Made by a program: the position numbers and the translations under genes. A DNA stretch of 64,000 nt from an uncultured Gemmatimonadales bacterium (lineage in GTDB: Bacteria > Gemmatimonadota > Gemmatimonadetes > Gemmatimonadales > Gemmatimonadaceae), in NCBI GenBank assembly GCA_963701965.1, contig OY969695.1, positions 2,656,001-2,720,000 on the forward strand, read 5' to 3'. Position 1 is the first letter of the stretch, and each line of letters starts with the position of its first letter. The notes below the pieces were generated by a model. That model had not been told where the DNA came from. It was given only the letters and a program-made list of their open reading frames with translations, and ran no database searches. Shown one piece after another: positions 16,727 to 35,070 of this stretch.

Positions 16727-17751
16727 GCCCGGGCCAGGAGGAGCGCGACCGCCGCGGCCGGCGCACATTCCGCGGCGGCGACGCCCAGCGTGTCGGAGAG
16801 CGCGATCGGCTGCAGCCCTGCTTGGCGGCAGGCCGCCTCGGCGATCGCCGCGCCGATGCCGGCAACGACGCCCGTGGACAGCGAGGGGTGGCGCTCCCGG
16901 ACCCGGGCGATCGCGCCCGCGGTGCGCGCCACCTGCGCGTCGCCGACGTACGTGGCGATGGCATTGATCGCCTTTTCGTCCAGCATTTCCCGGTCGGCGC
17001 ACACGACGCGGGCGATCCGCTCGGCCGCGAACGTACGCGCCGCGGGGCGGCCATCGGGCGTTGGCGCCGTGTACACCGTGGAACTGATCGTTCCGCGCCA
17101 CACGTGCACATCGCCCACGAGCGCGAAGCCCTCCGCGCTCACGCCGGCCCAACCAGCGCCCAGCGGCACCGCCCGCACGATCGCTTCGACCGGTGTCCGC
17201 ACCGCGCCCAGGTAGACCAGCTCACCCGATGCCAGACGTTCGGGATCGGTATGTCCCTCGGCGACGACCCGCCCGTCGACGATCGGGATGATGTCGGTCG
17301 TCGTCGAGCCGATATCGACCAGGACCGCATCCGGGACGTGCGCGGCGACCATCTGCGCCATGGCGACCCAGTTGGCGGCCGCCACGGCGAGCGGCTCGCG
17401 CCGGGCCGACTCGACCGTGAGCCAGCGGCCGTCGGTCGTGAATACCGCGATGCGGGCGCGCGGGAACGCGGCGGCGACGCCATTGAGCACAAACGCGACC
17501 CCTTCGCGCTTCGTCCGAAAGGCCTGTGACAGCTCGGCGGTCATGGTCACCGCGTGGGCCTCTTCGCCGATCCCCCCGATCTCGGCGGCGAGCGTGGTCA
17601 AGAGCCCGGGCAACGCGCCGAGGTCGCGCTGGATCTCGTAGGGCCGCGACCGCACGGCGACCACGCCGGGCCGCCCCGCGGCGTCCACGCCAACGCCGGC
17701 GACCTTGGTGTTGACGCCACCGATGTCCCAGCCGATTACCGTACAGGTCAT
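16723..17751 (-). CDS. Hydantoinase/oxoprolinase-family protein, MfnF-like (Orf9)
   Basis: GWDIGGVNTK, AVTMTAEL, AAANW, DIGSTTTDIIP and GELVYLGAVRTP motifs. Confidence 0.88.
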   Translation of the reverse strand: MTCTVIGWDIGGVNTKVAGVGVDAAGRPGVVAVRSRPYEIQRDLGALPGLLTTLAAEIGGIGEEAHAVTMTAELSQAFRTKREGVAFVLNGVAAAFPRARIAVFTTDGRWLTVESARREPLAVAAANWVAMAQMVAAHVPDAVLVDIGSTTTDIIPIVDGRVVAEGHTDPERLASGELVYLGAVRTPVEAIVRAVPLGAGWAGVSAEGFALVGDVHVWRGTISSTVYTAPTPDGRPAARTFAAERIARVVCADREMLDEKAINAIATYVGDAQVARTAGAIARVRERHPSLSTGVVAGIGAAIAEAACRQAGLQPIALSDTLGVAAAECAPAAAVALLLARA

Positions 17752-18436
17752 GCGGCTCATTGGGGTGATCGACTTGGCCGGCGGGCAAGCGGTCCACGCG
17801 CGCGGAGGGCAGCGGGCCGCCTACGCGCCCGTTCGATCCGCGCTTTTACCTTCCGGCGGCGGCGCCGATCCCGTTGCGCTGGCGCGCGCCTATCTCGATG
17901 TGCCGGTCGCGGAAATATACGTGGCCGATCTCGATGCGATCGCCGGCGACGAGCCGGCTTGGGATACGGTCGAGGCCCTGTCGCGGCTCGGCGTGCCGGT
18001 CTGGATCGATGCGGGCCAGCGCTCGGTCGAGGTCGCGGCGGGAGCGCCCACGGTGCGGGCGGTGATCGGGCTCGAGACGTTGCGCTCATGGCACGAGCTG
18101 GCAGCGCCAGGCGCTGCCTTCAGCCTCGATCTCCGACGTGGCCGCCCACTCGTGGGCGACGAGCCGCCCGCGGCCCTGGCGCGGCGCGCAGTGGCCGCCG
18201 GCGCTTCCGCCATCGTCCTGCTCGACCTCGCCCGCGTCGGGTCGTCAACCGGGCTCGACTGGGTAACGGTCCAGGAAGTCCGTACGTCAACGATGGGGGT
18301 GGAACTCATCGTCGGCGGAGGCGTACGGGACTCACAGGACGTGGATCGGCTGGCGGATCTGGGCTGCAACGGAGTCCTCGTCGCAACTGCCCTCCATGAG
18401 CGTCGCCTTGGGCACGGAGTTTTCCTGAGGACTTGA
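17750..18436 (+). CDS. HisA/HisF-related TIM-barrel protein (Orf17-like)
   Basis: IGVIDLAGGQAVHA, YVADLDAI, LLDLARVG, VGGGVR and LVATALH motifs. Confidence 0.85.
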   Translation: MRLIGVIDLAGGQAVHARGGQRAAYAPVRSALLPSGGGADPVALARAYLDVPVAEIYVADLDAIAGDEPAWDTVEALSRLGVPVWIDAGQRSVEVAAGAPTVRAVIGLETLRSWHELAAPGAAFSLDLRRGRPLVGDEPPAALARRAVAAGASAIVLLDLARVGSSTGLDWVTVQEVRTSTMGVELIVGGGVRDSQDVDRLADLGCNGVLVATALHERRLGHGVFLRT

Positions 18437-18439: not shown

Positions 18440-19084
18440 ATGAGAAAAGCGACGGCGGTATTCGTGGCGGCGATAGCGGCCGGGGTCGCCACTGGCGGCG
18501 CCCTACCCGCGCAAGCGGTGCGGCTGGGAGTGGTCATGGATGGACCACGGCAACAGCTCATCGAAGCGTGGAACGATGCGAACCCGCGGCAGGTCGAGCG
18601 CGCGTACTGCGTCGTCGATTGGTCGTTTGGCGTCTACCATGTTTCGCGCACGCCGCCGATTCAGGATGACACGGTGTTCCGCGTGTTCGCCATCAAACCG
18701 ACGGACGTGTCCAACGCGACGCCCGCGTCCGCGGACTTCGAGTGCCCCACCGGGAGCCCGGAGTTGCACGTGCACACGCCGACGACGTGTATGGGCGACG
18801 ATGTCGACACGTGCCGGCTGGGCGGCCTCAACGCATATAGCTGTCAGCCGAGCCGCAATGATTACGAGAAGCTCGTGCGCCGGCACGACACGTTCGGTGT
18901 GATCCAGTGCGACCGGCGGTCATTTCGCTTCTACTATCCGAGCGACTACGCGACGCCCGACGAGACGTGGCTGTCGAGCGCCGCGGGCAAGCCGCCGGAG
19001 GTCAAACAACGGCCCGGGAATCTGACGCCGGCCATGAAGCCTGGATATGAGCGTCAGCCCCATCAGGGCGACCAACAGCCCTAG
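18440..19084 (+). CDS. Secreted Cys-rich protein with a degenerate JAB/MPN+ (JAMM) motif
   Basis: Signal peptide ending AQA; PRQVERAYC (Glu), ELHVHTP (HxH) and PSRND (SxxD) in JAMM order, with a Cys-rich insert. Confidence 0.6.
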   Translation: MRKATAVFVAAIAAGVATGGALPAQAVRLGVVMDGPRQQLIEAWNDANPRQVERAYCVVDWSFGVYHVSRTPPIQDDTVFRVFAIKPTDVSNATPASADFECPTGSPELHVHTPTTCMGDDVDTCRLGGLNAYSCQPSRNDYEKLVRRHDTFGVIQCDRRSFRFYYPSDYATPDETWLSSAAGKPPEVKQRPGNLTPAMKPGYERQPHQGDQQP

Positions 19085-19267
19085 TGTCTGGTCGTATCCT
19101 TCGGCATTCTGTTGGTGCGCCATGCCCGTGTCGGTCGACGCCGCTGGCGGCGGCTGCGTCGCTGCCGCGCCCGTATCGGCCATTGCGCCACTGCTCGAGT
19201 TCGATGTTCGCCCCCCGCTGCAGGCGGTGAGCAAGGCGGCGACTGCTATCGCTGTCACGTATCTCAT
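19081..19267 (-). CDS. Small lipoprotein (~61 aa; +1 frameshift at ~19108)
   Basis: Lipobox LTAC. Removing one A from CAGAATG gives ...QMPKDTTRH* ending at 19081. Confidence 0.65.
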
Positions 19268-19344
19268 GGATTGTGCTCCCCGAAGTTGGATAGTCCCCGA
19301 AACCACGGTGTTTGAGCAAGTACCGGACCCATTAGGTTGCAGAC

Positions 19345-19786
19345 ATGGATCGTCGCGCATTCCTTTACGCTGGTACGAGCGCAGCTGTAGGACTGCTGTT
19401 CCGGCAGCCTGACGACGATGAGCCGACGGAGGCCGTGAAACGCGTATTGGCTACGCGCTTCGGGTCTCGTCCGCTGACCAAGGGGCATGTGCAGTTCGAC
19501 ATTCCCGAAAACGCGCCCGATGGCCGCGCGGTGCCGGTATTCATCGAGACGGATTTACCGATGACGCCGGAGCGTTACGTCAAGGCGTTCCATCTCCTTG
19601 TCGACCACAACCCGGACATTTATCTCGCCGGGTTCACGTTCTCTCCGGCCCTCGGCGCGGCGTCGATCGACACGCGCATCAGAGATGCGGCGCACGTCCT
19701 ATGTGCGCGCCATCGCCGAGATGTCGAGTGGCGAGTTGTACGTGTCGGCGAAGAAAGTGTTCGTTTTGCTCAACGGGTGCGGCTGA
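19345..19786 (+). CDS. SoxY-like sulfur/cargo carrier with Tat signal and C-terminal NGCG (+1 frameshift at ~19682)
   Basis: MDRRAFL; PENAPDGRAVPV; LVDHNP; TRIxMRRTS; ends KVFVLLNGCG (canonical SoxY ends VxxGGCGG). Confidence 0.85.
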
Positions 19787-20124
19787 TGGCGACCGGCGAT
19801 GCGCGCGTGATCGTTCCCGCCGGTATCAAGGCCGGCGATGTCATCTACGTGCGGGCCATCATCGAACATCCCATGGACACGGGATTCTTTCGCACCCCCG
19901 ACGGCCAGCCGATCCCGGCGTATTTCATACAGGATGTCACCGTCCGATACGGCGAGGACGAGATCGCGCACTACGAGTGGACGTCGGGGGTGAGCCGGGA
20001 TCCATCGGTGACGTTCGCGTTGAAGGCGGTGCGTGAAGCGCCGATCGCCGTGACGTGGAAGGACAACAAGGGTGGTGTGTACCACCAGTCGGCCGACGTG
20101 AGATTCGCGCCGCAGGCGCAATGA
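19786..20124 (+). CDS. SoxZ-like protein
   Basis: VRAIIEHPMDTG, IPAYFI, GVSRDP and WKDNKG motifs; TGATG overlap with the soxY-like gene. Confidence 0.88.
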   Translation: MATGDARVIVPAGIKAGDVIYVRAIIEHPMDTGFFRTPDGQPIPAYFIQDVTVRYGEDEIAHYEWTSGVSRDPSVTFALKAVREAPIAVTWKDNKGGVYHQSADVRFAPQAQ

Positions 20125-21939
20125 TCGCGCGGGCGCTGCTCGGCGCCCTGGTTGCTCTCCCGCCGCTGTTGCCGTTACCCCGACCAACGGCGTATCCCAG
20201 CGTCAGATTGGCCGAAGGGGTGTACGCGGTGCCCGGCGACACGGGACGCGGCTCCGAGGGACGGGCCAACGCGGGCTTCGTCGTCACGGACAGCGGCGTG
20301 GTGGTCATCGACGCCGAGTCCAGTCCCTATCAAGCCAAGCGCCTGCTCGCCAGCATCCGGCGTGAGACGCCGGCGCCCGTGCGGTGGCTGATTCTCACGC
20401 ACCACCATCCCGACCATACGTTCGGCGCGATCGTGTTCAAGCGGATGGGCGCTCAGGTGATCGCGCATCCCGATCGACATTTCCTCGCCGCCGAGGAAGG
20501 CGACGATGCGCTGGTCGCCAACTGGGATGGCGTCGTCGGTGTCCAGCAACTGGTGGGGTTCGCGTTCGCCGACACGCCGGGTTTGGCGATCACGCACGAC
20601 ACCACGCTCACGCTCGGCCGTCGCCGCATCGAGATCCTGCATCCGCCCGACGCGCACACGGCGGGGGATCTCGCTGTCTTGATCCCGGCGCAGCCGGGAT
20701 CGGGCCAACCGACCTCGGATCTCGCGACGCGAAGCGTCGCCGGGATTCCCGACGTCCGCGTGCTCTTCGCCGGGGACATCGTTGTCGAGGATGGGGTGAG
20801 CATGGTGGTCGATGGCACGGCGTCGGGGACGCTGCGGGCGCTCGACCGGTTCGAGGCGTTGCATCCCGCCGTCGTCGTGCCGGGGCACGGGCGGATCGAG
20901 GCCGATCCGGCATCCCAGATCGCGCGCACGCGGACGTACCTCGACTCGGCGCGGACCGCGCTCAAGGCCGCGCTCGATCGCGGGATGCCGCTCAGCCGTG
21001 TGCTGGCGCGGATGCCGCCGCCGGATTCCGGACGCCCGGTGTCGCTCGCGTCGCGCCATCAGCGGAACGCGGTGCGCATCTACGCCGAGCTCGAGAAGGA
21101 ATTGATAGACCCGCCCCATTCAGGTCTGATCTCGACCGACTCATTAGCGAGTCTGATCAAGAACGGCCAGGCGACGATCGTCAATGTGCGTACGGACGTC
21201 TCGTTGTATCTGGAGTCGCACATTCCTGGCGCCGTATATCTGCACGCCGAGTCGCTGCGATCGTTCGACCACGGGGTGCCGAATCTGCTCCTCCCACCGG
21301 AGAGCTACGCGACGCTCTTCACGCGCATCGGCATCCGCCCCGACCGCCCCGTCATCGTGTACAGCGCGGGAGACACGCGCAACATCGACGCGACGTATCT
21401 GGCGTGGATCCTGGATGGTTTCGGGGTGCCGGTGTCGGTGCTCGACGGTGGTTTTCAGAAGTGGGATCTGGACCAGAAGCCCACGGGGCGCACGTACCCG
21501 GCACCGGTGCCAGGCACGTTTCCCGTGCGGGCGTTTGAGCCGGCCCGGGCCACGCTCGATGATGTGAAGCACGTCGTCGAGGCGCATCCCGCGGACGCGG
21601 TGCTCGTCGACGCGCGGTCGCCAGAGCAATATGCCGGGCAAGCGGGCGCCCAGAATGCGGCGCGGACACATTCCGGGTGCGGTCAATCACCCGTGGACGA
21701 CCGATCTGACGACGGGGTTGTCGCACGTCTTCAAGGATCGCGATGCCATCCGCACCAGCTATGTGACGCAGGGTATCACGTCGGACAAAGCCATCATCGC
21801 GTATTGCAACGGCGGACTCGAGTCCAGCCACATCTACTTCGTGCTGCATATGGTGCTCGGCTATCCGCGCGTCCGGGTGTACGACGGTTCGTACACCGAG
21901 TGGGCGGCGCACACCGAGCTGCCGGTGGTGGGCCCTTAG
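20121..21939 (+). CDS. Secreted MBL-fold metallohydrolase fused to a tandem-domain rhodanese/sulfurtransferase (+1 frameshift at ~21653)
   Basis: NAGFVV, THHHPDH, AHTAGD, LFAGD and PGHG; then HIPGAVYL, GHIPGAVN, YCNGGLES (active-site Cys) and YDGSYTEW. Confidence 0.87.
20681..20746 (+). repeat. ~66-bp double-hairpin element, copy 2 (in-frame insertion in the MBL domain)
   Basis: Encodes IPAQPGSGQPTSDLATRSVAGI between DLAVL and PDVRVLFAGD; 62 of 66 nt identical to copy 1. Confidence 0.9.
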
Positions 21940-22478
21940 CGCACGACGATCAGCGCCGGGTGGCGGATCCCGCCATCGGCGAGGCGCACCGCGGCGTCGA
22001 TCGAGTCGGCGTCCCAGGCCGCGAGCACGACGCGGTCCGTGCCGGCGGCGAACGTGGCCAGGTCAGTCGAGGACAGCACCGGCTCTTTGAGCGCGTGCCC
22101 GACCGAGTCGGCGCGGTAGGGGTGCGTGTGCCACGTGCCAATGAGCGCGGACACGTGTGTGCAGGTACCGGTGACCGCGAACTGGAGCTGGTGGAGCCCC
22201 AAAGCCGGCGTCCAGTCCGTGATGTAGACGGTGTCGGCGCTGACGTGGCCGATGAGACAGCCCAAGTATTCGCGCTGGGTCGGTTTCCCGGTGCCCAGCA
22301 TCTGGGTCAGCGTGTTGACGTCGGACAACTCGTTCCAATGCGTGTTGTTGCGGAGCCAGATGGCGTTGATCGAGTCGGCGACCGGACGCGCGATCACCAC
22401 GACGGCGGGTGGGTGGGGTGCGGGCGACAGGGCTACCCCGGCACACAGTAAGACTCGAAGCAACGACGGGCGCAGCAT
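21936..22478 (-). CDS. Secreted JAB/MPN+ domain metalloprotease-like protein (180 aa)
   Basis: Hydrophobic N-terminus; QREYLGCLIG, IGTWHTHP and LSSTD give the JAMM pattern E...HxH...SxxD. Confidence 0.78.
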   Translation of the reverse strand: MLRPSLLRVLLCAGVALSPAPHPPAVVVIARPVADSINAIWLRNNTHWNELSDVNTLTQMLGTGKPTQREYLGCLIGHVSADTVYITDWTPALGLHQLQFAVTGTCTHVSALIGTWHTHPYRADSVGHALKEPVLSSTDLATFAAGTDRVVLAAWDADSIDAAVRLADGGIRHPALIVVR

Positions 22479-23856: not shown

Positions 23857-24405
23857 TCAGCCGGAGCCGATGCCCGTGCGCAAGTCCGGGGACCGCCCCA
23901 CGGCCTCGCGGTAGACGGCCGACTGGCCGAAGTTCTCCTCTACCTCGATCTCGATCACCCCAAGTCGACCCGCCGCGGAGCCGAGCTCCGTTTTGACTCG
24001 CCCGGCCAAGTACTGGGCCAACATCTCGACGGTGGTGTTCGGGATCGGGAGGAGAACGCAGTCTTCGCGGGGAAACACGTAACGGGGGCGGTGCTCGTAG
24101 GCCACCGTTATCGTTTCCCCCTGCTCGCCGATCACGAGCTTCGGGTTCTCCAAGGGCAGGAGCACCCAATGGTCGATCTCATCGCACAGCCGCTTCATCA
24201 GCCGCTTGAGGTCGACAAAGTTGAACACATACCAACTTTCGGGATCGAGTGGCCCCTCCAGCGCGACGGCGACACGGTAGTTGTGGCCGTGCAGGTTCTC
24301 GCAGCGGTGTCCGGCGAACGTGATGAAGTGCGCGGACGAGAACACGAGATAGTCTTTCGTGACCTGCACCCGGAAGAGCTTTTCGGCGTGATCAGTGGTC
24401 GGCAT
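23857..24405 (-). CDS. 6-pyruvoyl-tetrahydropterin synthase/QueD-family protein
   Basis: FSSAHFI, CENLHGHNY, NTTVE and VEEN motifs. Confidence 0.88.
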   Translation of the reverse strand: MPTTDHAEKLFRVQVTKDYLVFSSAHFITFAGHRCENLHGHNYRVAVALEGPLDPESWYVFNFVDLKRLMKRLCDEIDHWVLLPLENPKLVIGEQGETITVAYEHRPRYVFPREDCVLLPIPNTTVEMLAQYLAGRVKTELGSAAGRLGVIEIEVEENFGQSAVYREAVGRSPDLRTGIGSG

Positions 24406-25285
24406 GCCAGAGTCCCGAGAGAAGACCAACAAAGAGCGAAGCCGCGGTGAGATCCGCGGTCGTGCCGGGATTCAACCGGCGCTCGCGCAGCGTGTGGTCA
24501 AATGTGGAAAGCGTCACGCGCCCGGCGAGCACGGCCGCCGCGCCGCGGCTGACAGCCGCGGCCGTGGGGGCGCCATGGCGACGGGCAATATGTGTATCGG
24601 GCGCGGCAGCGAGAAGGTGTAGGTAGGTGTCCACCGTCGCGGGCTCCCAACCCGCGCCCGTCGCCAGCGCCGCTCGCAACGTCGGAAACCCGAGCTCGAA
24701 CGTCGTCTCGAAATCCGTCGCGTACTCGCGGGCGACGCCATCCCGCTCGGCAGCCAGGCGCATCGTCTCGCGCAAGGCGATCCGAGGCTCGGCCGCAACG
24801 TCCTCGGCGCTGACGGCGCCGAGCCCGCCCGGTCGCGCGAGCCGGATCGCCGCATAGACCTCGCGCGCGTCCTCCACTGTCGTCGCCGCTAACATCTCGC
24901 CCAACGCTTCCCGAAGCCTCTTCGGGGCGCGAGATCCCTTGTCGATAACAGGGGTCGCGGCTTCGCCAGGATGCATGCGCTCGGTTTCACGGGCCCCGGC
25001 CTGGGCCGCGCGCGCAGCGCGCGCCAGCGGGACGATGAGCAGGACGATGCCGAGGTTGGTGTTCGAGCGCGTCCAGCGCGCTGTTGCCTGTACGGCCGCG
25101 TGTATGGTGGCGCCGAGCGGGCGGTCACCAGCGAGCGCGGGGCCGAGCGCGGCAGCGCTCGCCAAAAAGTCCTCGTAGCGCGCATCATGAAAATGTCGAT
25201 CGGGCGACACGTTGCCGGGTTTGGGCGCGCTCGCTTCCAGGAGGCAGGCGAGCTGGGCGGCCGCGACAATGAAGTCATCCGTCAT
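24392..25285 (-). CDS. CitG-family triphosphoribosyl-dephospho-CoA synthase-like protein (Orf7)
   Basis: EASAPKPGNV, NTNLGIVLL, PDTHIARRHG and NPGTTADL motifs. Confidence 0.87.
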   Translation of the reverse strand: MTDDFIVAAAQLACLLEASAPKPGNVSPDRHFHDARYEDFLASAAALGPALAGDRPLGATIHAAVQATARWTRSNTNLGIVLLIVPLARAARAAQAGARETERMHPGEAATPVIDKGSRAPKRLREALGEMLAATTVEDAREVYAAIRLARPGGLGAVSAEDVAAEPRIALRETMRLAAERDGVAREYATDFETTFELGFPTLRAALATGAGWEPATVDTYLHLLAAAPDTHIARRHGAPTAAAVSRGAAAVLAGRVTLSTFDHTLRERRLNPGTTADLTAASLFVGLLSGLWHADH

Positions 25286-26146
25286 GTCGCCAGCGCCGCG
25301 TCGACAATAGCGCCAGCCACGTCGAGCCCAGTAGCCTCCTGCAACCCGCGCCACCCCGGAATGCCATTGACCTCCAGCGCATACACCGGCCCTTCGCGCG
25401 AGGGCAGGAGATCGACGCCGGCGTACATGGCGCCAACGGTGCGCGCCGCCGTGATCGCCATATCGCTCCAGTCCGCCGGCAGCGTAAACGGCCGCGCGCT
25501 TCCCCCGCGCGAGTAGTTCGTCCGCCAGCCAGGCCCATCGGCGGATGCCGACCGTTCGATGGCGCCGACGACGCGGTCGCCAACGACGAACGCGCGAACG
25601 TCGCGCCCTTCGTGGGCGATGAACCGCTGCAGATAGAAAACCCCCCGCAGCTGCTCGATCGCCCGAAAGACCCGCCACGCGACGTCCTCGTCGGACACGC
25701 GCACCATGCCCAGCCCCATGGAACCAAAGAGCGGTTTGACAATGACGTCGCGCAGATCCCGAAACGCCGCCATGGCGTCATCCGCCCGCTCGCAGACGAC
25801 AGTCTCCGGCGTCGCCAACCCGGCGCGCTCGAGCAACGCCGACGTCAAGAACTTGTCCACCGTGCGCTCAATGGCACGCGGCGCATTGACGACCCGCACG
25901 CCCACATCACTGAGCCAGTGCAGCGCATCGATCCGATAGAATGATCTGCTCCAACGACCCGTTGGGGATGATGCGCGCCAGCACGAGATCCCCGGGCCGG
26001 ATAGACGGCGGAACGCGGCGGCCTGCGCCCAGGCGGCTCACGATGCCTTCCCACGGGACGATCCGCACCGCCGCCCCGCGTTTGGCGAACGCGCGGCAGA
26101 GCTGCTCCGTATGCCAGCCCTGTCGTGACGCGAGAATCGTGACTAC
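25282..26146 (-). CDS. RimK-family ATP-grasp glutamate ligase (Orf5-like); +1 frameshift at ~25938; start codon unresolved
   Basis: GWHTEQL, RIIPNGSLEQII|YRIDALHW, VDKF, KPLFGSMG and LEVNGIPGW motifs. Confidence 0.85.
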
Positions 26147-26466
26147 TTGGACGACTCCACGCCGATCAGCGCGGTGAGACCACCCGTGGCAAAGTTCGCC
26201 AGATCGTCCGACACCTTCTTGAACCCCGGCGTAGCCATGCCCTTCTTGAGCGCGTCCAGCGACGGAAAGAAGAGTTGCGCCTGGCGGTACAACGTCGGCG
26301 TCTTTCCGTCCGCGGTCGACACGAACTTGGTGAGGATCACGTTGGAAATCCCGATCTCTTTCGCGTTCGCGCTCACGAGCGGCAGATGCGTCGCCTCGTA
26401 GTAGCGTTCAAACGCCGCGGCGTCCTTCGGCGTGTTGTACAGGACGACCAGCTCCGCTTGGGCCAT
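26143..26466 (-). CDS. EthD-family protein
   Basis: LVVLYNTPKDAAAFERYYEATHLPL and DLANFA; 107 aa. Confidence 0.8.
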   Translation of the reverse strand: MAQAELVVLYNTPKDAAAFERYYEATHLPLVSANAKEIGISNVILTKFVSTADGKTPTLYRQAQLFFPSLDALKKGMATPGFKKVSDDLANFATGGLTALIGVESSK

Positions 26467-26482
26467 CGCGCGATCTCCGCAG

Positions 26483-27439
26483 TCAGGAGTAAAGAGAGGA
26501 CCGAAGAATGTTGGGATTGAGGTCTCCGCCCTGGAAGGTCCGCCCGGAGCGCGCACTCGTCAACCAGACTTCGGCGGGACTGAACAACAGCGGGTCGATC
26601 TTGTAGAAGTCGCCTTTGTAGCGGGTAAACGTCTCGTAGAACGGCGTGCCGTAGTCGGACGACGCCGAGGCCGGAAGCTTGGCGGCGAGCGGTTCCAGCT
26701 CCGCGTCGTCGGCATCGATCAGGAATCGCGCCTCCCCGCCGTACAGGATGCAATCATTCGTGCGGCCTATCGCCCGGAGATCGTTGGTGCAATAGGGAGG
26801 CACCGGCGCCGACCCGGCGGCATGCACGACGCGGGTCACATCGAAGCCCAGCGCATCCATCTTGTGCAAGCCGGTTTCCAGCACGCGGGCGACGATCTGC
26901 ACGCTGCCCGCGGTGCTCGCGGTGGGGGCCACGACGAACGTCAGCTGTGGCGGCGTGAGACGCGCGCGGGCGGCGACCCACTCGGCCACCGCGTCGGTCG
27001 GGTGGGCGCGGGTCTCCATCACGAGTACGCCGCGCGCCGCGGTCTCCTGGTACCGGAGCTTCTCGAACAGCTCCTTCTCGACGCGGGCATGAGCCCGGAG
27101 CGGCCCCGACCCCATCGCGAAGAACTTGTCGACCTGAATCGCCCAGCCCGCGTACTGCGAAGCCATGCAGGAAACCGCGGGATGGTCAGTCCAGACTTCG
27201 ACGCCCGTGTAGTCGTCGGGCCCTACGCGCACCGTTTGATAGGCAATGTGTCCGAGACCACCCATGCACACCTGCGCCAGCGCCAGGCCCGCGCCATAGC
27301 CGCCCGGCACGTCGATCCCCAGGTCAATGATCCGCGCGCCGGATGGGAGTGTCGAGACGGCGATACGCAACTCCTCGCTGCGCGCCGCGACGTCATCCGC
27401 GATCGTCGCGGCCCTCGCGTTCAGTCTCAGGTCGTCCAC
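26483..27439 (-). CDS. mch: Methenyl-H4MPT cyclohydrolase
   Basis: CMGGLG, CMASQYAGW, MGSGP, ARVLETGLHK, GRTNDCILYGG and DFYKIDPLLFSPA motifs. Confidence 0.95.
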   Translation of the reverse strand: MDDLRLNARAATIADDVAARSEELRIAVSTLPSGARIIDLGIDVPGGYGAGLALAQVCMGGLGHIAYQTVRVGPDDYTGVEVWTDHPAVSCMASQYAGWAIQVDKFFAMGSGPLRAHARVEKELFEKLRYQETAARGVLVMETRAHPTDAVAEWVAARARLTPPQLTFVVAPTASTAGSVQIVARVLETGLHKMDALGFDVTRVVHAAGSAPVPPYCTNDLRAIGRTNDCILYGGEARFLIDADDAELEPLAAKLPASASSDYGTPFYETFTRYKGDFYKIDPLLFSPAEVWLTSARSGRTFQGGDLNPNILRSSLYS

Positions 27440-28239
27440 TGGAGAATCTCTCCTTTGCCGACGTCCGCCAGGTCGCCGACCCAGCGCGTGAAGAGCCCCG
27501 TGCCATATCCGGCGTCGATCGGGAAGTTCCGGACGCGGCGGAGGTAGCGGACGAGTACCGCAATGTGCGGCGGGCGGTACGTGCAGGCGAAACCATAGGT
27601 GGCCGGGATGTCCACGCCGCCCAGGGCGACGATCGAGCCGCGCTTGGACCACAGCCCCGTGCCGGGACCGGCGCGGCCGCACACGACGAGACTTCCGGCG
27701 ATCATGGCGTGCGCGGCGCGCGGCCCCGCATTGCCGCCGACGACGATCAGGCCGCGGCGCGCCCGCGCGCCGGCATCGGCGCCGGTGTCGCCGCGCACGA
27801 TGATCTCGCCCCCGATCATCCCACGCGATGCCCCCGGCGCCGCGCCGCCGAGCCGGTCGCCGGCCGAGCCGCGGATGGCCAGATACCCGCCCGCCATCGC
27901 GACGGCCGCACCGTCGCCGACGTCGCCCGTGGTCGCGATCGTCCCGCCGGTCATCGCCAGCCCGACGTCGCGGCCCGCCGGCCCGTCGATCGTGAGGGTC
28001 CCGCCCGTCATGTTCGTGCCCAACCCATCGACTTGTCCCAGCTCCCCCACGACGGTCACGTCCGCGCTCCGCTCTCCCTCGACATCGAAGATGTCGCCCA
28101 GCGCTGCGCGCTGGCGACCCACCCACACATCGAGGTGGGCGATCTCGGCCGTGCCAAGCGTGGCCAACCGATCGGCACAGATCAGCGAAGCGTCGATCGA
28201 CGCCGGGGCGCCTGGGCGCAGGGTGAGCGTGACACTCAT
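27427..28239 (-). CDS. fhcC: Formyltransferase/hydrolase complex subunit C (FwdC-like)
   Basis: Gly-rich GxxMxGG beta-helix repeats; LGDIFDVEG; GDLADVGKGEI. Confidence 0.92.
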   Translation of the reverse strand: MSVTLTLRPGAPASIDASLICADRLATLGTAEIAHLDVWVGRQRAALGDIFDVEGERSADVTVVGELGQVDGLGTNMTGGTLTIDGPAGRDVGLAMTGGTIATTGDVGDGAAVAMAGGYLAIRGSAGDRLGGAAPGASRGMIGGEIIVRGDTGADAGARARRGLIVVGGNAGPRAAHAMIAGSLVVCGRAGPGTGLWSKRGSIVALGGVDIPATYGFACTYRPPHIAVLVRYLRRVRNFPIDAGYGTGLFTRWVGDLADVGKGEILQWTT

Positions 28240-29138
28240 GCGACGATCTTGCGCAGATAGAAGTGGTGCGGCCCGAGCTTGCCGCCGTAGTTGCCGGCGG
28301 TGATCAATCGGATGCCGGGCAGACAGGCGGCGGGAATGCCGGCGCGCATGGCGCGGGCAATACTGTCGAAATCCACTCCGTCGATGACAATCTCCATGAC
28401 CGAGTTGACGCCCGCCGGCAGCTCGGTGGCCGTCACGGGCCGCAGGGTCGGCGCGAACGCATCATTCGTCGTCGCGATCATGCTCGGGTATCGCTTCGAC
28501 CCGACTTTGCTGCCGCTGCGCACAATGCCCCCGGGAAAGGGCATGATGACGCCCGCGACGCCCGACATCGCGTCGATCGCCGCCTCGGCGGCCGCCAAAG
28601 CCCGCTCGGCGCTTTCCCCAAGCACGAGGAAGTTGCCGCCGCCGACGCCGGAGACCTTTCCGAAGCTCTCCTCGATCAGGCATTCGCCTTCCATGACCGG
28701 CAACCGCCAGTAGCGCGTGCCGCCGATCATCTTGCTGGACTGAAAGCCGTCGGCAAACACGCGCAACGCTTTGCCGACGGGCATCCGGTCCGGCGAGCCG
28801 GGAATCCCATCGAAGATCGACGTGGTCGGACAGGTGAGCACGGTTTGCCCGAGGCGTTCGATGAGCCGCTGCTGCAACCCGGCCGAGTCGGGCGTGAAGA
28901 CCAGCACGCTGATGCCGGGGCGACCGTCCGGGGTCTCCTCGCCGTCGATCTCGCGCTCGATGCCGGCTTCGACCTTGCAGCCAATGACCGAGGTCGCGAA
29001 TCCGGTCATCGTCGTCGCCGCCACGCGCGCCCAGCGGGCGTTCACCGCCGTGATGATCACGCGCGCGGCGCGCATGGGGAACGCCTCGGCGAACGTGTCG
29101 GCGATCTCGACGCCATTGATCGCAAACGGTTCACTCAT
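28236..29138 (-). CDS. fhcD: Formylmethanofuran:H4MPT formyltransferase
   Basis: DTFAEAF, GFATSVIGC, TPDGRPG, GVGGGN, GGIVRSGSK and AGNYGGKLG motifs. Confidence 0.95.
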   Translation of the reverse strand: MSEPFAINGVEIADTFAEAFPMRAARVIITAVNARWARVAATTMTGFATSVIGCKVEAGIEREIDGEETPDGRPGISVLVFTPDSAGLQQRLIERLGQTVLTCPTTSIFDGIPGSPDRMPVGKALRVFADGFQSSKMIGGTRYWRLPVMEGECLIEESFGKVSGVGGGNFLVLGESAERALAAAEAAIDAMSGVAGVIMPFPGGIVRSGSKVGSKRYPSMIATTNDAFAPTLRPVTATELPAGVNSVMEIVIDGVDFDSIARAMRAGIPAACLPGIRLITAGNYGGKLGPHHFYLRKIVA

Positions 29139-30754
29139 CGAGCCACCGGATAATTCTCGAACGACACCGTGCCGTGCGCGTCGAAGTACCGCTTGATGTC
29201 GCGCTCCACCGCCGCGTCATACGCGGGTTGCACGCGCAGGCGGCGCCCTTGCGGCGCGCGCCGTAACTGACCCTCTTCGACGACCAGCGTCCCCGCCTTG
29301 ATCACGTAGCGCGGCGTCGAGAACATCTCGGCCAGGTTATCGGAACGGGCGTAGATCGTCACGTCGGCGTCGGCGCCGACGCCGAGGTGGCCCTTGTCGC
29401 GCAGCCCGAGGAGCCGCGCCGGGCCGGCCCGGGTGACGATGGCGATCTCGTTGAGGGTGTACACGCGGGCCAGGCCGTCGGCCAACGCGCTCCCGGCGAG
29501 CATCTTGTGATTGACGCGCTTGAGCTGGTCGTCGCGGTACGTCTTGTCCATCAGCAACCGGATCAACTCCGGATAGCTCATGAACGACCCGCCATTGGGA
29601 TGGTCTGTCGACAGCACCAGCCGCCAAGGGTCCGGCGACAGCAGAAACAGCTCCAGCCCGACGACCCACTGGAGCGCCGCGACCGCCGCGCTGTCCTTGT
29701 AGACGTAGGGCACGATGCCGCACCCCGTCTCCATCTCGATGTCGACGTTGACCCACTTCTTCCCGGTCGACATGTGGAGCAGATACTCGACGGCGCCGTC
29801 GGCGGTCAGCGTCGTGGCGTCGCCGAACATGACCTGGCCGACGTCGCCGCTGACTTCGGGATGGGTCGCGAAGTACTCGGCGATCTGCTTGGCCTCGGAC
29901 GTCCACGGCTTGCCGCGCGCGCCGCCATAGCTATGGAACTGCAGGTGCGTGAAGTGCGCCCGCCGCCCGGCGACGGCGCGCATGCTGTCGAGCGTCATGG
30001 CAATGTTCCCGGGCACGCCCAGATTGTTGCAATGGATGTGCACGGGATGGGGAAGCCCCAGCGCGTTGGCCGCGTCGGTCAACGTCTCCAGCACGGCGCG
30101 CGGCGTGACCGTGGGCGCGCCGATGGGGTCATCGAGCGAGTGGATCTCGCGCACGTTGCGCTTCCACAGCTCCACGCCGCCCGGATTCACGATCTTGATC
30201 GCGTAGCCCTGGATGGCGCCGAGGAGCCAGGCGGCGTAATCGCGGGCCCGATCGCGCTCACCCGCGGCGATCTGGCGCAGCAGGTAGTCGTCGTTTCCCA
30301 ACAGCGCGAAGAAGCCGGCGTCGATGATCGGTGTGTCGTCGAGCTGTGCGTGCGTGGACCGCGCCGTGATGGGGGCGACCGCGGCGTCGAACACCGTCGT
30401 GTAGCCCAGGCCCGCATACCGGTACCCCGTGGTGAAAGTGCTCGGCACGGTCCCACCACTCCCCGACCGGGCGAGCGAGGGTTCGTCATCCGCGAAGCGC
30501 GGAGCGCGAGCGGGGTCGGCCGCGTGCTCCTCGGGGAGGAGTTGCCGCGCCAGATTGGTGCTGGAGGCGGCGACGTGGGCGTGGATGTCGATCCCGCCCG
30601 GCATGACCACCATCCCCCGCGCATCGAGTCGCGGTGCATCGCCGCTCAGCGACGCGACGATCCTTCCGTCCTGGATGCGGATGTCGCGGATCTCGCCATC
30701 GACGCCATTCGCCGGGTCGTGGACGGCGCCACCGGTAATACGCAGCGCGCTCAT
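29135..30754 (-). CDS. fhcA: Formyltransferase/hydrolase complex subunit A (FwdA-like amidohydrolase)
   Basis: PGGIDIHAH, IKIVNPGG, HIHCNNLG, THLQFHSYG and STDHPNGG motifs. Confidence 0.95.
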   Translation of the reverse strand: MSALRITGGAVHDPANGVDGEIRDIRIQDGRIVASLSGDAPRLDARGMVVMPGGIDIHAHVAASSTNLARQLLPEEHAADPARAPRFADDEPSLARSGSGGTVPSTFTTGYRYAGLGYTTVFDAAVAPITARSTHAQLDDTPIIDAGFFALLGNDDYLLRQIAAGERDRARDYAAWLLGAIQGYAIKIVNPGGVELWKRNVREIHSLDDPIGAPTVTPRAVLETLTDAANALGLPHPVHIHCNNLGVPGNIAMTLDSMRAVAGRRAHFTHLQFHSYGGARGKPWTSEAKQIAEYFATHPEVSGDVGQVMFGDATTLTADGAVEYLLHMSTGKKWVNVDIEMETGCGIVPYVYKDSAAVAALQWVVGLELFLLSPDPWRLVLSTDHPNGGSFMSYPELIRLLMDKTYRDDQLKRVNHKMLAGSALADGLARVYTLNEIAIVTRAGPARLLGLRDKGHLGVGADADVTIYARSDNLAEMFSTPRYVIKAGTLVVEEGQLRRAPQGRRLRVQPAYDAAVERDIKRYFDAHGTVSFENYPVAR

Positions 30755-31977
30755 CGCGCCCTCACCAGCGCCGTCAGCGCGCCCACGGTGCCCGCGGTCT
30801 CGCGGATGGTGCCGGCCAGCGGCGGCCGCAGCGGAAGCGGGATGTCATCGGCGCGCACGGCCGTCCCGCCGTCGTGAATGCCGGCCATGCCGGTGTCGAT
30901 CGCCACCGCGGCGTCGGTCGCGGTCGCGCGTGGTCCAATCACGATGCGGGATACTTTGGCGAAGCTGCCGGACGGGATCGACCCCGCGGCGCCGACGATC
31001 AAGACCACGTCGGGGTCGACGCGGGCGTCGGGATCATAGCGCGGGGCGCCCCGGGCGAAATCCACGGCCATCGGGTATCCGGTCTGCCACGTGAGCACCG
31101 ACTCGGCCCCCACACGGTTCCCTCCGGCGCGCATCGTGACGAGCGCGCACCGCGTGGGCCCATTGAGCGCCTCGGCCAACGCCAACAACGCCTCGGCCCG
31201 TCCCTCGTCGCGGCCCGGCCGTGGCTCGGCGTCGGCGATGAGGGCGACATACTTGGCGGCGACGAGCCGCGCGGCGAGCGCCGCGGGCTTGTCGCCGATC
31301 GGTGCAAGCGCGGCGCTCATGGGCCTGTCGCCACCGGGCATTCCGCCCGACGGCGCAACGGTTATAACGCGACCCAGTACCGCGGCGCGCATCAGCGCGG
31401 CCGCGGCGAGTTCCTGCGCGGCCGGGAACGCGAAGCGTTCCGCCGCGTCGGGCGGCCCGGCATCATCGCCAATGTCCACCGCGATGATCCCGGCGGGATT
31501 GGTCAGATAGCGCGACCGAAGTCGCGGATAGCCGCGCGCGGGGTCGATGCCCCAGAACACAATGACGTCGGCCCGGTTCCGCAGCTCGCCGAACGTCGCC
31601 CCGGCGCGCCCGCGGCGCTGCGCGGCGATGAGCCAAAACCCGGCGGTCAATGCCGTCAGCGTGTCGAGCGCCGCGCCCAGCGCATCGGCCAGCGCGACGG
31701 CTTCGCGCTGCGCCACACTCGACAGCTCGGCCGCGAGATAGATCAACGGACGCTTCGCCCGCATCAAGAGTGTCGCGGCTTCGCGCAGCGCGGTTGACGC
31801 GTCCGTGTCGGCGCCGCGCACACGGACACCGGAGGAGATGGCACCGTCGCCGAACCACGCCACGCCCAGCGGGCACGCGTTGCGGGCATCGGTGATCCGA
31901 CCGGCCGTCACCGTGACGGCAATGTCATCGCAAGCCAGCCCGCAGCCCAGACACGTGACGTGATCCACGACGGTCAT
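30751..31977 (-). CDS. fhcB: Formyltransferase/hydrolase complex subunit B (FwdB-like)
   Basis: TCLGCGLACDD, TFGELRNRAD, WQTGYP and GTAVRADDIPL motifs. Confidence 0.9.
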   Translation of the reverse strand: MTVVDHVTCLGCGLACDDIAVTVTAGRITDARNACPLGVAWFGDGAISSGVRVRGADTDASTALREAATLLMRAKRPLIYLAAELSSVAQREAVALADALGAALDTLTALTAGFWLIAAQRRGRAGATFGELRNRADVIVFWGIDPARGYPRLRSRYLTNPAGIIAVDIGDDAGPPDAAERFAFPAAQELAAAALMRAAVLGRVITVAPSGGMPGGDRPMSAALAPIGDKPAALAARLVAAKYVALIADAEPRPGRDEGRAEALLALAEALNGPTRCALVTMRAGGNRVGAESVLTWQTGYPMAVDFARGAPRYDPDARVDPDVVLIVGAAGSIPSGSFAKVSRIVIGPRATATDAAVAIDTGMAGIHDGGTAVRADDIPLPLRPPLAGTIRETAGTVGALTALVRAR

Positions 31978-33056
31978 GCGGCCACCCGCCCGGCGCGGGC
32001 CACCAGGCGACGATAACAATCGTCCTCGTCGCGACCGGTGGCGAACACCGTGCAGATCGGAGCACCGGCGCGGATGACCGAACCCGGGCACGGGATGTCG
32101 CGGACGCTAGGATCGCCGAGCCACGACGTCGTGTCGTCCACGGTCACCATGCGCCGCGCATAGACGATGGCCTTCCCAATGGTGCCTCGACGGCGGACAC
32201 GCGGCGCTTCGGCCAGCCGTCCCGCGCACGCCGCCACATGGGCCGTGGCGATCGAGATGCCGTAGTGGCGCTCGGCCAGCTCCATCGACGCGCAATACCG
32301 CGGATTGACCTCGATGGGAATCGGCACGCCTCGGCGCACGATGAAATCGATGCCGTTGATCCCGACGAGCCCGAACGCGCGCGTCGCGATCCCCGCCAGG
32401 ATCACCGCGCGATCGTAGAGCGCGCGGTGCTCACCCGGATGCATCAGGATGTTGCCCGCGTAGCGGAATCCCGACGCCCCGAACGCCGCATCGCCGACTA
32501 ACTGGCGGGTCAGCGCCAACGGAGCCGCCGATTCCCCGTCGGCCACAAAGACGATCGAGCCCGGGACACCCGCGATGCGCTCCTGCACCACGCAGCTCCT
32601 GGCGATCGGCATGTGCTGTCGCCACGGCACGATCGCGTGCCCGCCACCGGACCGCCGCGGTTTCCGGAGCCATCGCCCCACCGCCGGCGCGCTGGCGCGC
32701 ACGGCCGGCGTCGCGATCGCATGCGCCGCGAACGCCCGCCGGAGCGCGAACGGATCGCGCACCCGCGCGGTAACCCCTGGTGGGTTCCCCAGGAGCGCCC
32801 GATCTCCCGCGAGCGCGCCGAGCGCCGCCGGGTGATTCTCGAAGTTCGACGTGTAGGCGACGACGTCGGCGGCGACGCCGCGCGCGCGCAGCGCGGCGGC
32901 AGACGCCGAGTACCGTCCCGGAAGGGCGTGCACGGTCGCCACGGCGCGGAGATCGAGATCCCCGTATCCATCGATCGCCACCACGCGATACCCCGCCGCG
33001 GCCGCCGACTCGGCGAACGCGCGGACGCTGGCCCCGGCCAGGAGCAGCGTCGCCAT
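31974..33056 (-). CDS. ATP-grasp protein associated with H4MPT/methanofuran clusters
   Basis: GASVRAFAESA, DGYGDLD, KPRRSGGG, QERIAG and IEVNPR motifs. Confidence 0.85.
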   Translation of the reverse strand: MATLLLAGASVRAFAESAAAAGYRVVAIDGYGDLDLRAVATVHALPGRYSASAAALRARGVAADVVAYTSNFENHPAALGALAGDRALLGNPPGVTARVRDPFALRRAFAAHAIATPAVRASAPAVGRWLRKPRRSGGGHAIVPWRQHMPIARSCVVQERIAGVPGSIVFVADGESAAPLALTRQLVGDAAFGASGFRYAGNILMHPGEHRALYDRAVILAGIATRAFGLVGINGIDFIVRRGVPIPIEVNPRYCASMELAERHYGISIATAHVAACAGRLAEAPRVRRRGTIGKAIVYARRMVTVDDTTSWLGDPSVRDIPCPGSVIRAGAPICTVFATGRDEDDCYRRLVARAGRVAA

Positions 33057-34108
33057 CAGGCGATCCCCAGGCGGCGCCGCGCATCACCCGGCGCCACGGC
33101 GTAGAGATGGTCCAGCACCGTTCCCCGCGCCTCGCGCAACCCCAGCGCCTCGACCAGCGGTTGGCGCGGCCCACCGGCGAGACCGTCGGCGATCAACGCC
33201 GCGCCTTGCGCCGCCTGCTTGGCGACGGTGGCGAAACCACCCAGCCGCCGCACGGGGGCGATGTGCCCGAGACGGTCGGCGAACGCGTCGAACACACGGT
33301 CCGAGCGGGCCATGCGCCCCGAGAGCACGATCTCCGCCGGCGCCGGCACGGCCACCATGAGCAGCGCGATCGCTTTGAGACCGCCCTCGAGGAACGCCGC
33401 CCACGACACGTCGGCCTCGGGGATGGCCCCGAGGCCGCCGGCGAACAACATCGCTTTGGTGACCTGTCCCGCCAGGTACGCGACCTCGCCATCCCACGCT
33501 CCGGGCGACTGCTGCCCCGCGGGTCCGGACGATCCCCCCAGCCCGTCGACAATGCGCCCCGCGTCGACAGCGACCGCCGCGGTGAACGCGCCGCCCAGCT
33601 CCAGGAGGATGAGCGAGACGTCGCTCACAGCGCAGTCGCGCCGCCGGCACTGCGCATCGATGGCCAGCGCCGCCGCGCAGACCTTGTCCGCGGTTCCCAT
33701 GTCGACGCGATTGACCTTGCGGTGCGCGGGCACCGAGGCGAGATGCACCACACCGGGCGTGAAAACGACCGGCAGGCCGGAGGACGCCAATGCCCGCACG
33801 AGCGACGTCAGGCCCCCGAGGCCGCCCACCTCGCCCGCCTCGGCGAGCACCGCGAGCCGCAGGTCCTCTTCGGTCAACTCCCACCCTGGCACGAGCGGAA
33901 GCCCGTAGCCCGATGGGCCCGCGATCACGTCGAGCGGCCCGCAGGATCGCAGCATCCGCACCACCTCATCCGGTTCGGCCAACGCGTCGGCCGTCGCCAG
34001 CGTGCGATCGAGAAACACGGCGTCGCCGGCCAGTCCGCAGAGATCGATGCTCACCGTCCCGGGGTCGATGCCGACGACCCGCGGCCCGTTTCGCGCCGCC
34101 TCCGCCAC
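33056..34108 (-). CDS. DUF1464-family protein (ASKHA/butyrate-kinase-like)
   Basis: VVGIDPGT, GPSGYGLP, HRKVNRVDMGTADK, ELGGAFTA and AKQAAQGAA motifs; GAGG RBS before GTG. Confidence 0.82.
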   Translation of the reverse strand: MAEAARNGPRVVGIDPGTVSIDLCGLAGDAVFLDRTLATADALAEPDEVVRMLRSCGPLDVIAGPSGYGLPLVPGWELTEEDLRLAVLAEAGEVGGLGGLTSLVRALASSGLPVVFTPGVVHLASVPAHRKVNRVDMGTADKVCAAALAIDAQCRRRDCAVSDVSLILLELGGAFTAAVAVDAGRIVDGLGGSSGPAGQQSPGAWDGEVAYLAGQVTKAMLFAGGLGAIPEADVSWAAFLEGGLKAIALLMVAVPAPAEIVLSGRMARSDRVFDAFADRLGHIAPVRRLGGFATVAKQAAQGAALIADGLAGGPRQPLVEALGLREARGTVLDHLYAVAPGDARRRLGIA

Positions 34109-34116
34109 GATGTCCT

Positions 34117-34974
34117 CTAGCCTATCGATTGCGCCAGCTCGTGTATCGCCTCGGCGTCGAGCACCACATCGTTCGACTCGAACAGCCGCGCGATGCACCG
34201 TTTGTGAATTTTCATCTTGAGCCCACCGACGCCGAGCGCGCCAAAGCACACGACGCCGTCGCGCTTGACCCCATCGTCATTGGCATCAATGCCTTCGATG
34301 CCCAGTGGCGGCACGGCGTTGAGATCGACGGCGACGATGAGTCCGCGGTTCGCCCACGCCGCCCGTGGTACCATCTGCACGCCCGCCGGCCCGCAGTTGA
34401 GCAGAATCTGCGCCCCGTCGACAATGCCGGCGGCTTGCGACGGCTCGGCCATCGGCTTGCACGAGACGTGGCCGCCAAACCGGGCGATGATGTTGCGCTG
34501 CGCGCGCTCGCCATCCGGGCCGCGGCGCGATGTGATGACGACATCGGCGCCTTCTTTCGCGAGCAGACCCGCGGCGCGGGCGCCCACCGGGCCCGTGCCC
34601 GCCGTGACCACCGCGCGCTTGCCCCGCACATCGCCGACCGTGCGCACGATTTTCCGAACCGCCGCCACGGCCGTCGTGTTCGAACCGTTCGAGTCCAGCA
34701 TCAACGAGACGCGGAACGGTCCGAACAGCGTTTCCTGCGCGGCCGTCAGGATCGATTCACCGACATTGATATCCTGGCCGCCGATGAACACCGCCGAGTT
34801 CACGAGGTCCTTTGGGCCCCGCGTGAAGATCAGGCCGTAAATGAGATCCCGTGCGTCGGCCGGCACGATACTGCCGTAGCTCATGATCTCATCGGCGCCG
34901 CCGTCGTAACCGACGACGCGGTCAAAGGCGCTCGGCAGCCGGTTGCTGTCGAGCTGCAATAACAGTTTTCGCAT
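34117..34974 (-). CDS. mtd: NAD(P)-dependent methylene-H4MPT dehydrogenase, MtdA/MtdC-like
   Basis: KLLLQLD...SAFDRVVGYDGG N-terminus (MtdA/C type); IFTRG, DSNGSNTTA, GTGPVG and DLNAVPP motifs. Confidence 0.92.
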   Translation of the reverse strand: MRKLLLQLDSNRLPSAFDRVVGYDGGADEIMSYGSIVPADARDLIYGLIFTRGPKDLVNSAVFIGGQDINVGESILTAAQETLFGPFRVSLMLDSNGSNTTAVAAVRKIVRTVGDVRGKRAVVTAGTGPVGARAAGLLAKEGADVVITSRRGPDGERAQRNIIARFGGHVSCKPMAEPSQAAGIVDGAQILLNCGPAGVQMVPRAAWANRGLIVAVDLNAVPPLGIEGIDANDDGVKRDGVVCFGALGVGGLKMKIHKRCIARLFESNDVVLDAEAIHELAQSIG

Positions 34975-35016
34975 GGGCGGCTGGGCTCGTAGCGAGGATA
35001 TCACCAGCAACCCCTA

Positions 35017-35042: not shown

Positions 35043-35070
35043 CAGGCTTGGGTCGCTGCTACTCCGAGCC

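Follow-up and report, generated by a model that had tools for sequence, protein, structure and literature searches.

Here we describe two putative exported JAB/MPN proteins, JAB1 and JAB2, encoded in a 64,000-nucleotide (nt) stretch of DNA (the window) from an uncultured member of the Gemmatimonadaceae whose genome is a single contig of 5.12 Mb and 95% complete. Their genes flank an operon encoding a SoxY-like carrier, SoxZ, and a SoxH-like metallo-beta-lactamase (MBL) fused to two rhodanese domains. All five genes lie in a methylotrophy supercluster, in which a xox operon for pyrroloquinoline quinone (PQQ)-dependent methanol oxidation occupies positions 1 to 4373 and genes of the tetrahydromethanopterin (H4MPT) pathway extend to about position 35,600. 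An initial annotation had suggested that the JAB and sox genes form a new coupled system in which the JAB enzymes trim or unload the SoxY carrier. What is new here is a family of exported JAB proteins that is tied to xoxF operons, not a JAB-SoxY relay.

JAB1 and JAB2 as predicted exported JAB/MPN proteins

The JAB1 gene starts 3 nt past the stop codon of a HisA/HisF-related gene, and the JAB2 gene converges on the sox operon, its stop codon overlapping that of the rhodanese fusion (Table 1). The loose residue order E..HxH..SxxD is not rare by itself: in a six-frame translation of this genome, 389 of 20,637 peptides fit it. We regard it as real in JAB1 and JAB2 because the E, both H, and the D are invariant in homologues (105/105 for JAB1 and 113/113 for JAB2) and the structural models of both proteins match JAB/MPN first in Foldseek and VIA. 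The catalytic S is kept in 105/105 and 112/113 homologues, respectively, and the residues read by the initial annotation (E, HVH, and SRND in JAB1; E, HTH, and SSTD in JAB2) are thus in place and invariant apart from a single S. A Cys pair is likewise invariant among the homologues of each protein (C74 and C106 in JAB2); JAB1 has six invariant Cys and a Cys-rich insertion between HxH and SxxD. The E, C, C, H, H, and D columns are common to 29 divergent family members.

Neither protein matches any JAB model in Pfam, NCBIfam, or PDB sequences, and neither reaches the gathering cut-off of the Pfam family Prok-JAB (PF14464), whose only match in the genome is RadC; more distant relatives (L157 and P0320) do exceed that cut-off. 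The AlphaFold models have mean pLDDT values of 78.8 (JAB1) and 87.4 (JAB2). For JAB2, Foldseek returned 103 matches at E ≤ 0.001, the top ones all MPN, and VIA aligned 118 residues with Pyrococcus furiosus JAMM1 (Z 14.3, rmsd 2.6). The JAB1 match is weaker (Foldseek E 2e-3; VIA Z 9.2, rmsd 2.6, and 102 aligned residues against the same protein), with MPN chains in its first 29 VIA rows. By a heuristic prediction, not SignalP, signal-like leaders are present in 92 of 100 JAB1 and 77 of 99 JAB2 scorable homologues (5 and 14 rows with truncated leaders were left out), compared with 0 to 1% of mature-region windows. We conclude that JAB1 and JAB2 are JAB/MPN proteins with an intact set of catalytic residues and with a predicted fold and predicted export, as the initial annotation had proposed for both.

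The predicted fold and the E, HxH, S, and D residues are shared with JAMM/MPN+ enzymes, among them P. furiosus JAMM1 (5ld9/5lda), Rpn11, CBASS Cap3 (9ild), and the Bil/Bub deubiquitinases. JAB1 and JAB2 differ from these in their signal-like leaders, their invariant Cys pair, and the 16 or 25 residues between HxH and S, a spacing that is canonically 7 residues in JAMM proteins. JABs that process ubiquitin-like proteins (Ubls), such as Mec/CysO, Cap3, and Bil, are cytoplasmic and have no signal peptide, unlike the proteins described here. Passages of PMC3482391, outside its Additional File 1, treat earlier prokaryotic JAB domains as intracellular with toxin and viral exceptions: Tox-JAB-1 and Tox-JAB-2 (DUF4329) likewise leave the cell, and some viral or phage versions are secreted. 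Tox-JABs form the toxic tips of RHS proteins and are accompanied by immunity genes, whereas the JABs here are stand-alone proteins of 160 to 215 amino acids encoded in metabolic clusters.

Passages of the same source also propose that divergent secreted JAB toxin domains are nucleases, which raises the question of whether the present family consists not of peptidases but of nucleases or deaminase-like enzymes that are exported, a function suggested for RadC and Tox-JAB. DUF4329 clusters are among the atlas look-alikes of JAB1, at 0.89 to 0.90 (a lead only), and a search with a narrow pattern found no exported Ubl; the only GG-ending proteins that this pattern picked up in the genome were MoaD-like and ThiS-like. 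However, Ubl peptidases give the best structural matches and RadC comes far down the list (Z 6.3 and 5.0), the genes stand alone with no RHS stalk, and the operon context is metabolic. We therefore consider a nuclease or deaminase-like activity highly improbable. No linked Ubl, E1, or CD-NTase gene was recognized among the clustered neighbors, of which not all were annotated. A fusion search over 7,992 candidates returned no credible fusion partner; the one longer match has a junk-like N terminus.

Table 1. Positions of the JAB genes, the sox operon, and associated one-carbon (C1) genes in the window
Feature	Positions	Strand	Remarks
xoxF-type PQQ dehydrogenase, 3' part	1..1276	+	WDYDG motif; starts before the window; frameshifted
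xoxJ, xoxG-like cytochrome c, pentapeptide-repeat protein, PQQ-associated beta-propeller	1398..4373	+	
HisA/HisF-related C1-cluster gene	17750..18436	+	Best match TIGR00734, below cut-off
JAB1, predicted signal-peptide JAB/MPN protein, 214 aa	18440..19084	+	E53, H110-V-H112, S138-R-N-D141
soxY-like carrier	19345..19786	+	Twin-arginine leader; tail LLNGCG; frameshift near 19682
soxZ	19786..20124	+	TIGR04490, 80.8 bits (cut-off 76)
SoxH-like MBL fused to two rhodanese domains	20121..21939	+	C-terminal CNGGLE loop; frameshift near 21635
JAB2, predicted signal-peptide JAB/MPN protein, 180 aa	21936..22478	-	E70, H117-T-H119, S136-x-x-D139
H4MPT-linked C1 genes: fae, mtdB, fhcBA-ftr-fhcC, mch, rimK-like, citG-like, PTPS-like	23857..35610	-	

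Distribution of the exported family and its link to XoxF

The named homologues of JAB1 and JAB2 belong to Gemmatimonadota, and in a sample of 300 genomes of this phylum a broad profile detected the exported JAB family in 73, with up to six copies per genome. It occurs in 53 of the 63 genomes with mch, compared with 20 of 237 others; the genome searches scored about 10 to 12 candidates per genome, and divergent JABs can be missed. Many of the new broad-profile matches were placed 15 to 25 kb from mch, and their loci revealed a sister subfamily, JAB4, that keeps the E, H, H, S, and D residues and has signal-like leaders in 126 of 133 cases. Neither BLASTP nor HHalign gave a direct sequence link between JAB1 and JAB2. 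We join them by their fold, by the shared E/C/C/H/H/D columns, and by JAB4 as a bridge, which HHalign connects to JAB2 (prob 92.8) and weakly to JAB1 (prob 44). The family members in this genome are JAB1, JAB2, and a JAB1 paralogue, with no JAB4. The paralogue is 45% identical to JAB1 and lies 7 kb beyond the window end (genome positions 2726504 to 2727136; L156, L094), beside genes that we take to be Ku-like and DnaA-like.

JAB4 genes are the last one or two genes of a xoxF-xoxJ-xoxG-pentapeptide-propeller operon. The propeller gene immediately precedes them, on the same strand, in 23 of 30 genome loci and, among 80 metagenome loci returned, in all 46 whose upstream sequence is 700 nt or longer. 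Several genera of family f2 have JAB4 within the xox operon, three genomes of family f1 have it nearby, and 34 of 35 JAB4 genomes have mch. The xox operon of relatives that corresponds to positions 1398 to 4373 closes with one or two exported JAB genes, which that of the present genome does not. The other subfamilies also touch C1 genes. In G110, JAB1 is the immediate neighbor of the propeller gene. JAB2 directly adjoins xoxF in L022, and in relatives it comes after the PTPS gene on the same strand as the H4MPT-linked genes. JAB3 sits next to fae in two genomes (G058 and G177) and next to a fragment of xoxF in G116. In all, four subfamilies have members in C1/xox clusters.

At L172 (positions 9700 to 10790, minus strand) and similar loci, the xoxF operon is closed by a tandem, diverged JAB4 pair, each copy of which forms its own clade; the two copies may form a heterodimer.

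Genome content points the same way. xoxJ exceeds its cut-off in all 11 JAB1 genomes (10 of 10 when the unpublished G153, which contributes one row each to an alignment and to the tree, is left out); four of the 11 lack mch and five lack SoxZ. It was also found in all 20 genomes tested from the 27 with JAB2, and in 1 of 75 control genomes with no JAB, mch, or SoxZ. SoxZ, by comparison, is present in only 6 of the 11 JAB1 genomes and 22 of the 27 JAB2 genomes. In genus g5, the one JAB1 genome among five has xoxJ, and three tested others do not. The tie to methanol oxidation that the initial annotation had drawn is supported, and its side suggestion that the JABs mature XoxF fits best among the options it listed. 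The JABs are accessory, and their stronger link is to XoxF, not to SoxY. C-terminal tails of XoxF are found in some JAB4 operons and not in others, with no clear substrate signal.

Several observations weigh against a functional tie of JAB1 and JAB2 to XoxF. In this genome, both lie outside the xox operon, 14 to 18 kb away, and the operon evidence comes from JAB4, a sister subfamily that the genome lacks and whose metagenome loci are close relatives of one query. Exported JABs are carried by 15 genomes with neither xoxJ nor mch, while nine genomes with both had no JAB found. Thirteen xox operons, picked from genomes with no in-operon JAB, run directly into a convergent DoxX gene with no JAB adjoining. 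Non-C1 contexts account for 84 of the 159 rows of the tree, a quick version with long branches meeting, whose deep order we did not use. The PTPS marker of the C1 cluster is absent from 66 of 80 JAB2 loci, many of which have short flanks. JAB-carrying genomes are also kin, and kin effects on these counts, which include no unrelated control gene, are large.

These points bear on an alternative hypothesis, that the proteins serve as hydrolases of the cell envelope in general, that certain Gemmatimonadota lineages inherited them together with methylotrophy genes with no functional tie, and that the position of JAB1 and JAB2 among C1 genes is historical. Most JAB2 copies and many JAB1, JAB3, and JAB4b copies sit in unrelated housekeeping contexts, and the C1-linked copies of JAB1 and of JAB2 form one clade each (support 96 and 95); the 15 genomes mentioned above also favor such a history. 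Against it stand the recurrence of JAB4 in or close to the xox operon in both f2 and f1, the distribution of xoxJ in genus g5, and the arrival of four subfamilies in a cluster that makes up roughly 1% of the genome. We view this alternative as possible but doubtful.

Another candidate for a working partner is a small protein of about 91 amino acids with a membrane anchor and six cysteines, which belongs to no Pfam family and might act as a substrate, an anchor, or an inhibitor (e.g., L009:10583-10861, minus strand, and L007:9172-9447, plus strand). It occurs in 19 fetched loci, always within about 4 kb of JAB1 or JAB2 and in two genomic contexts, and it remains beside JAB1 where the sox cassette is absent; the single soxZ-centered locus of 50 that has it is the one that also has JAB1 and JAB2. 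But most loci were chosen by their JAB gene, it is found in only 16 of 80 JAB2 loci, and it was not found in this genome, and we think it very unlikely to be the partner sought.

The sox operon and the proposed JAB-SoxY relay

The soxY, soxZ, and MBL-rhodanese-rhodanese genes are coupled through overlapping stop and start codons and match the expected Pfam families, as the initial annotation had described. The soxY and fusion genes each have one frameshift relative to intact relatives, which it had not reported. Sequencing error is the likely cause, because other genes of the window are also frameshifted; the only public DNA run reaches 9 of 30 bins and misses both frameshift places, and no RNA run was listed. 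A scan for promoters and terminators gave results at chance level.

Two further elements were observed in and beside this operon. The MBL gene contains, at window positions 20681 to 20754, an in-frame insertion of a palindromic repeat (z -2.9). BLAST finds 45 matches to it in the genome, of which some form tandem arrays with a period of 63 nt and eight fall inside long coding-like open reading frames (ORFs), and another copy lies near positions 11420 to 11485; the repeat resembles coding palindromic elements. Between JAB1 and soxY, a lipobox-bearing ORF on the minus strand (positions 19082 to 19267, the frame continuing to 18920) has no match in 80 related loci and may not be a gene.

SoxZ is the point of contact with the thiosulfate-oxidizing Sox system, being over its cut-off here; SoxA, SoxB, and a SoxY with the GGCGG arm were not found. 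The soxY pieces score 47 and 26 bits against the cut-off of 125 for TIGR04488, which has the GGCGG arm, and no SoxA or SoxB over cut-off was present in the whole genome (95% complete). The initial annotation had noted the lack of soxA, X, B, C, and D in the window, and its observation extends to the genome for SoxA and SoxB; SoxC, SoxD, and SoxX were not searched. Against TIGR04557 (fused SoxYZ), the genes, which are separate here, score 42 and 54 bits with a cut-off of 140. The hydrolase has its best matches in the zinc metallohydrolase models TIGR04558/TIGR04559 (150.7 bits, cut-off 280), with the HHHPDH motif present.

The same three functions, exported and with no SoxAX/B, make up the quinoprotein-associated relay (TIGR04557/04558/04559; Pseudomonas putida PP_2677, PP_2678, and PP_2666; Methylobacterium extorquens META1p1703-1705; SoxYZ-S2/S4). 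Passages of PMC12997753 describe genes for a rhodanese, a fused SoxYZ-like protein, and a SoxH-like protein that neighbor lanthanide PQQ dehydrogenases and propose that they serve disulfide formation or shield PQQ from sulfur species, and passages of PMC11237559 and PMC11582611 report soxYZ fusions near xoxF or PQQ enzymes. A PQQ dehydrogenase is present in both that setting and this genome, which also has pentapeptide and propeller genes in common with the ped cluster (passages of PMC12997753 and PMC11237559). The cassette described here differs in having soxY and soxZ as two genes, a tail that reads NGCG, and a double rhodanese joined to the hydrolase (in 13 of 20 loci), and it scores below the cut-offs of TIGR04557 and TIGR04559. 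It is likely to be an unfused, NGCG-tailed form of the known quinoprotein-associated type with a fused double rhodanese, separate from the JABs. That it works like the quinoprotein relay is suggested by its best model matches and by the company SoxZ keeps, 47 of 51 SoxZ genomes having mch and 1 of 51 a true SoxA over cut-off. The orphan soxYZ genes should not be taken as sulfur oxidation; incomplete sox sets in Gemmatimonadota are reported in passages of PMC10581226.

Across 20 soxZ loci of about 20 kb each, soxY and the MBL gene are present in all and the fused rhodanese in 13, and C1/xox genes are near in 3; the cassette is usually far from xoxF. In family f2 (L131 to L144), the soxY-soxZ-MBL-rhodanese cassette is often not beside C1 genes, and its neighbors are genes that we take to be heme-biosynthesis-like.

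The relay put forward by the initial annotation, in which the two JABs would work with the MBL and rhodanese to trim the arm of SoxY or unload it, draws on a linkage that does recur in homologues. The same bracketing is present in 6 of 80 JAB2 loci, with JAB1 162 to 683 nt upstream of the soxY twin-arginine motif on the same strand. In G052, soxY-soxZ-MBL, a JAB3 gene, pqqBCDE, an ABC transporter, fae, and mtdB share one strand (L189:6547-13081, minus), the JAB3 gene following soxY-soxZ-MBL and preceding pqqB. Exported JABs occur in 42 of 51 SoxZ genomes. In family f1, SoxZ and JAB2 are found in the same 6 of 71 genomes, and four of five C1-clade JAB2 genomes with no close soxZ have it elsewhere, SoxZ having been searched in only five genomes of the 80 JAB2 loci. 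JAB pockets suit extended tails of small residues (passages of PMC3239186).

The linkage is narrow, however. The soxZ-adjacent copies of JAB1 and of JAB2 each form one clade of close relatives, and 18 of the 20 soxZ loci (which may overlap with the 80 JAB2 loci) have no JAB within about 10 kb, leaving two that do. The close relatives L007 and L145 retain hisA-JAB1 with no sox cassette, and no SoxZ was found in G274 and G304. In the 300-genome sample, 27 genomes have strong JAB2 matches (4 weak matches from sister subfamilies were set aside), 26 of them with mch and 22 with SoxZ. Among the 63 mch genomes, SoxZ is not associated with JAB2 (counts 21, 5, 26, and 11; odds ratio [OR] 1.8, p 0.39) or with any exported JAB (OR 0.7, p 1.0). 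Its association with JAB4 (31, 3, 16, and 13; OR 8.4, p 0.0014), which counts against treating the two modules as independent, is confounded by kin; kinship can produce it, and it is also possibly real.

Moreover, SoxY offers nothing to trim because its tail ends one residue past the Cys. A cleavable extension was rejected on the grounds that 44 of 46 tails end in NGCG or NGCV, with no extension and no terminal GG. JAB chemistry cleaves amides (passages of PMC3239186). SoxY cargo is bound through a thiol, a linkage outside the reach of an amide hydrolase, and we know of no periplasmic ATP-dependent E1 chemistry that could load a carboxyl end; both considerations count against the relay. A predicted complex of JAB2, SoxY, and SoxZ from one intact relative scored 0.18 against a mark of 0.32 and was not used as evidence. 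A dedicated JAB-SoxY relay is thus not supported, and we judge it unlikely: the module is a known one that most often occurs with no JAB nearby.

Genomic setting and proposed roles

Among the H4MPT-pathway genes, mch and PTPS were labeled by Pfam and the others mostly by sequence likeness; pqqB, pqqC, and pqqE are present elsewhere in the genome. A second PQQ dehydrogenase gene lies immediately upstream of xoxF (genome positions 2651838 to 2657276), and another copy of xoxF, with 97% identity across the compared part, stands alone 2 Mb away (646550 to 648364). An MfnB-like (DUF556) gene at window positions 12650 to 13564 contains an internal repeat of units of about 20 residues that is not in the family model. 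An ARAGORN call of tRNA-Val at 24778 to 24851, within the citG-like gene, looks spurious. Phylum and pathway are shared with the Gemmatimonadetes for which passages of PMC5103831 report methylotrophy of the xoxF/H4MPT type, with XoxF as the protein of highest abundance in the soil proteome studied; those main-text passages, apart from the contig map of Fig. S3, mention neither JAB nor SoxYZ genes. An exported JAB family beside methanol dehydrogenase was not found in print, in a search that was thin on subscription journals, and the family is apparently undescribed so far.

We postulate that the JABs are periplasmic amide hydrolases that maintain the XoxF machinery, beside an independent SoxYZ sulfur-clearing module, and we consider the chances of this reading to be evenly balanced. 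It builds on the observed residue conservation and gene context, on a predicted fold and export, and on a zinc-dependent catalysis and a substrate that we infer. The JABs would be exported by Sec, and the Cys pair would form a stabilizing disulfide. Zinc-activated water attacks an amide in established JAMM chemistry, and would do so here as well, the substrate being perhaps a lysine that carries an acyl group, or else an extended tail, on XoxF or on one of its operon partners (XoxJ, XoxG, the pentapeptide protein, or the beta-propeller). In parallel, the SoxY Cys may take up sulfane sulfur or thiosulfate and so keep it from damaging PQQ or the vicinal cysteines of XoxF, the rhodanese would move this cargo, and the SoxH-like domain would hydrolyze it. 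Both modules would be accessory and may lie together here because one clade gathered both in the C1 supercluster.

A more specific version is that the JABs are disulfide-locked, ubiquitin-independent periplasmic repair enzymes that strip C1 adducts formed by the product of XoxF itself, with SoxYZ-SoxH-rhodanese acting in damage control. The adducts might be N-formyl-lysine amides on periplasmic proteins or S-formyl groups on the SoxY Cys, an idea that comes from general formyl chemistry. We speculate along these lines with little confidence, for the repair role and for the adducts alike. If true, this would be a damage-control system for lanthanide methanol oxidation.

Known JAB peptidases work in the cytoplasm on ubiquitin-like tails, and an exported stand-alone family that keeps its catalytic residues, with no such partner recognized among its annotated neighbors, would imply a new substrate class. 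That a JAB gene can close a xoxF operon suggests an unrecognized accessory step in lanthanide-dependent methanol oxidation.

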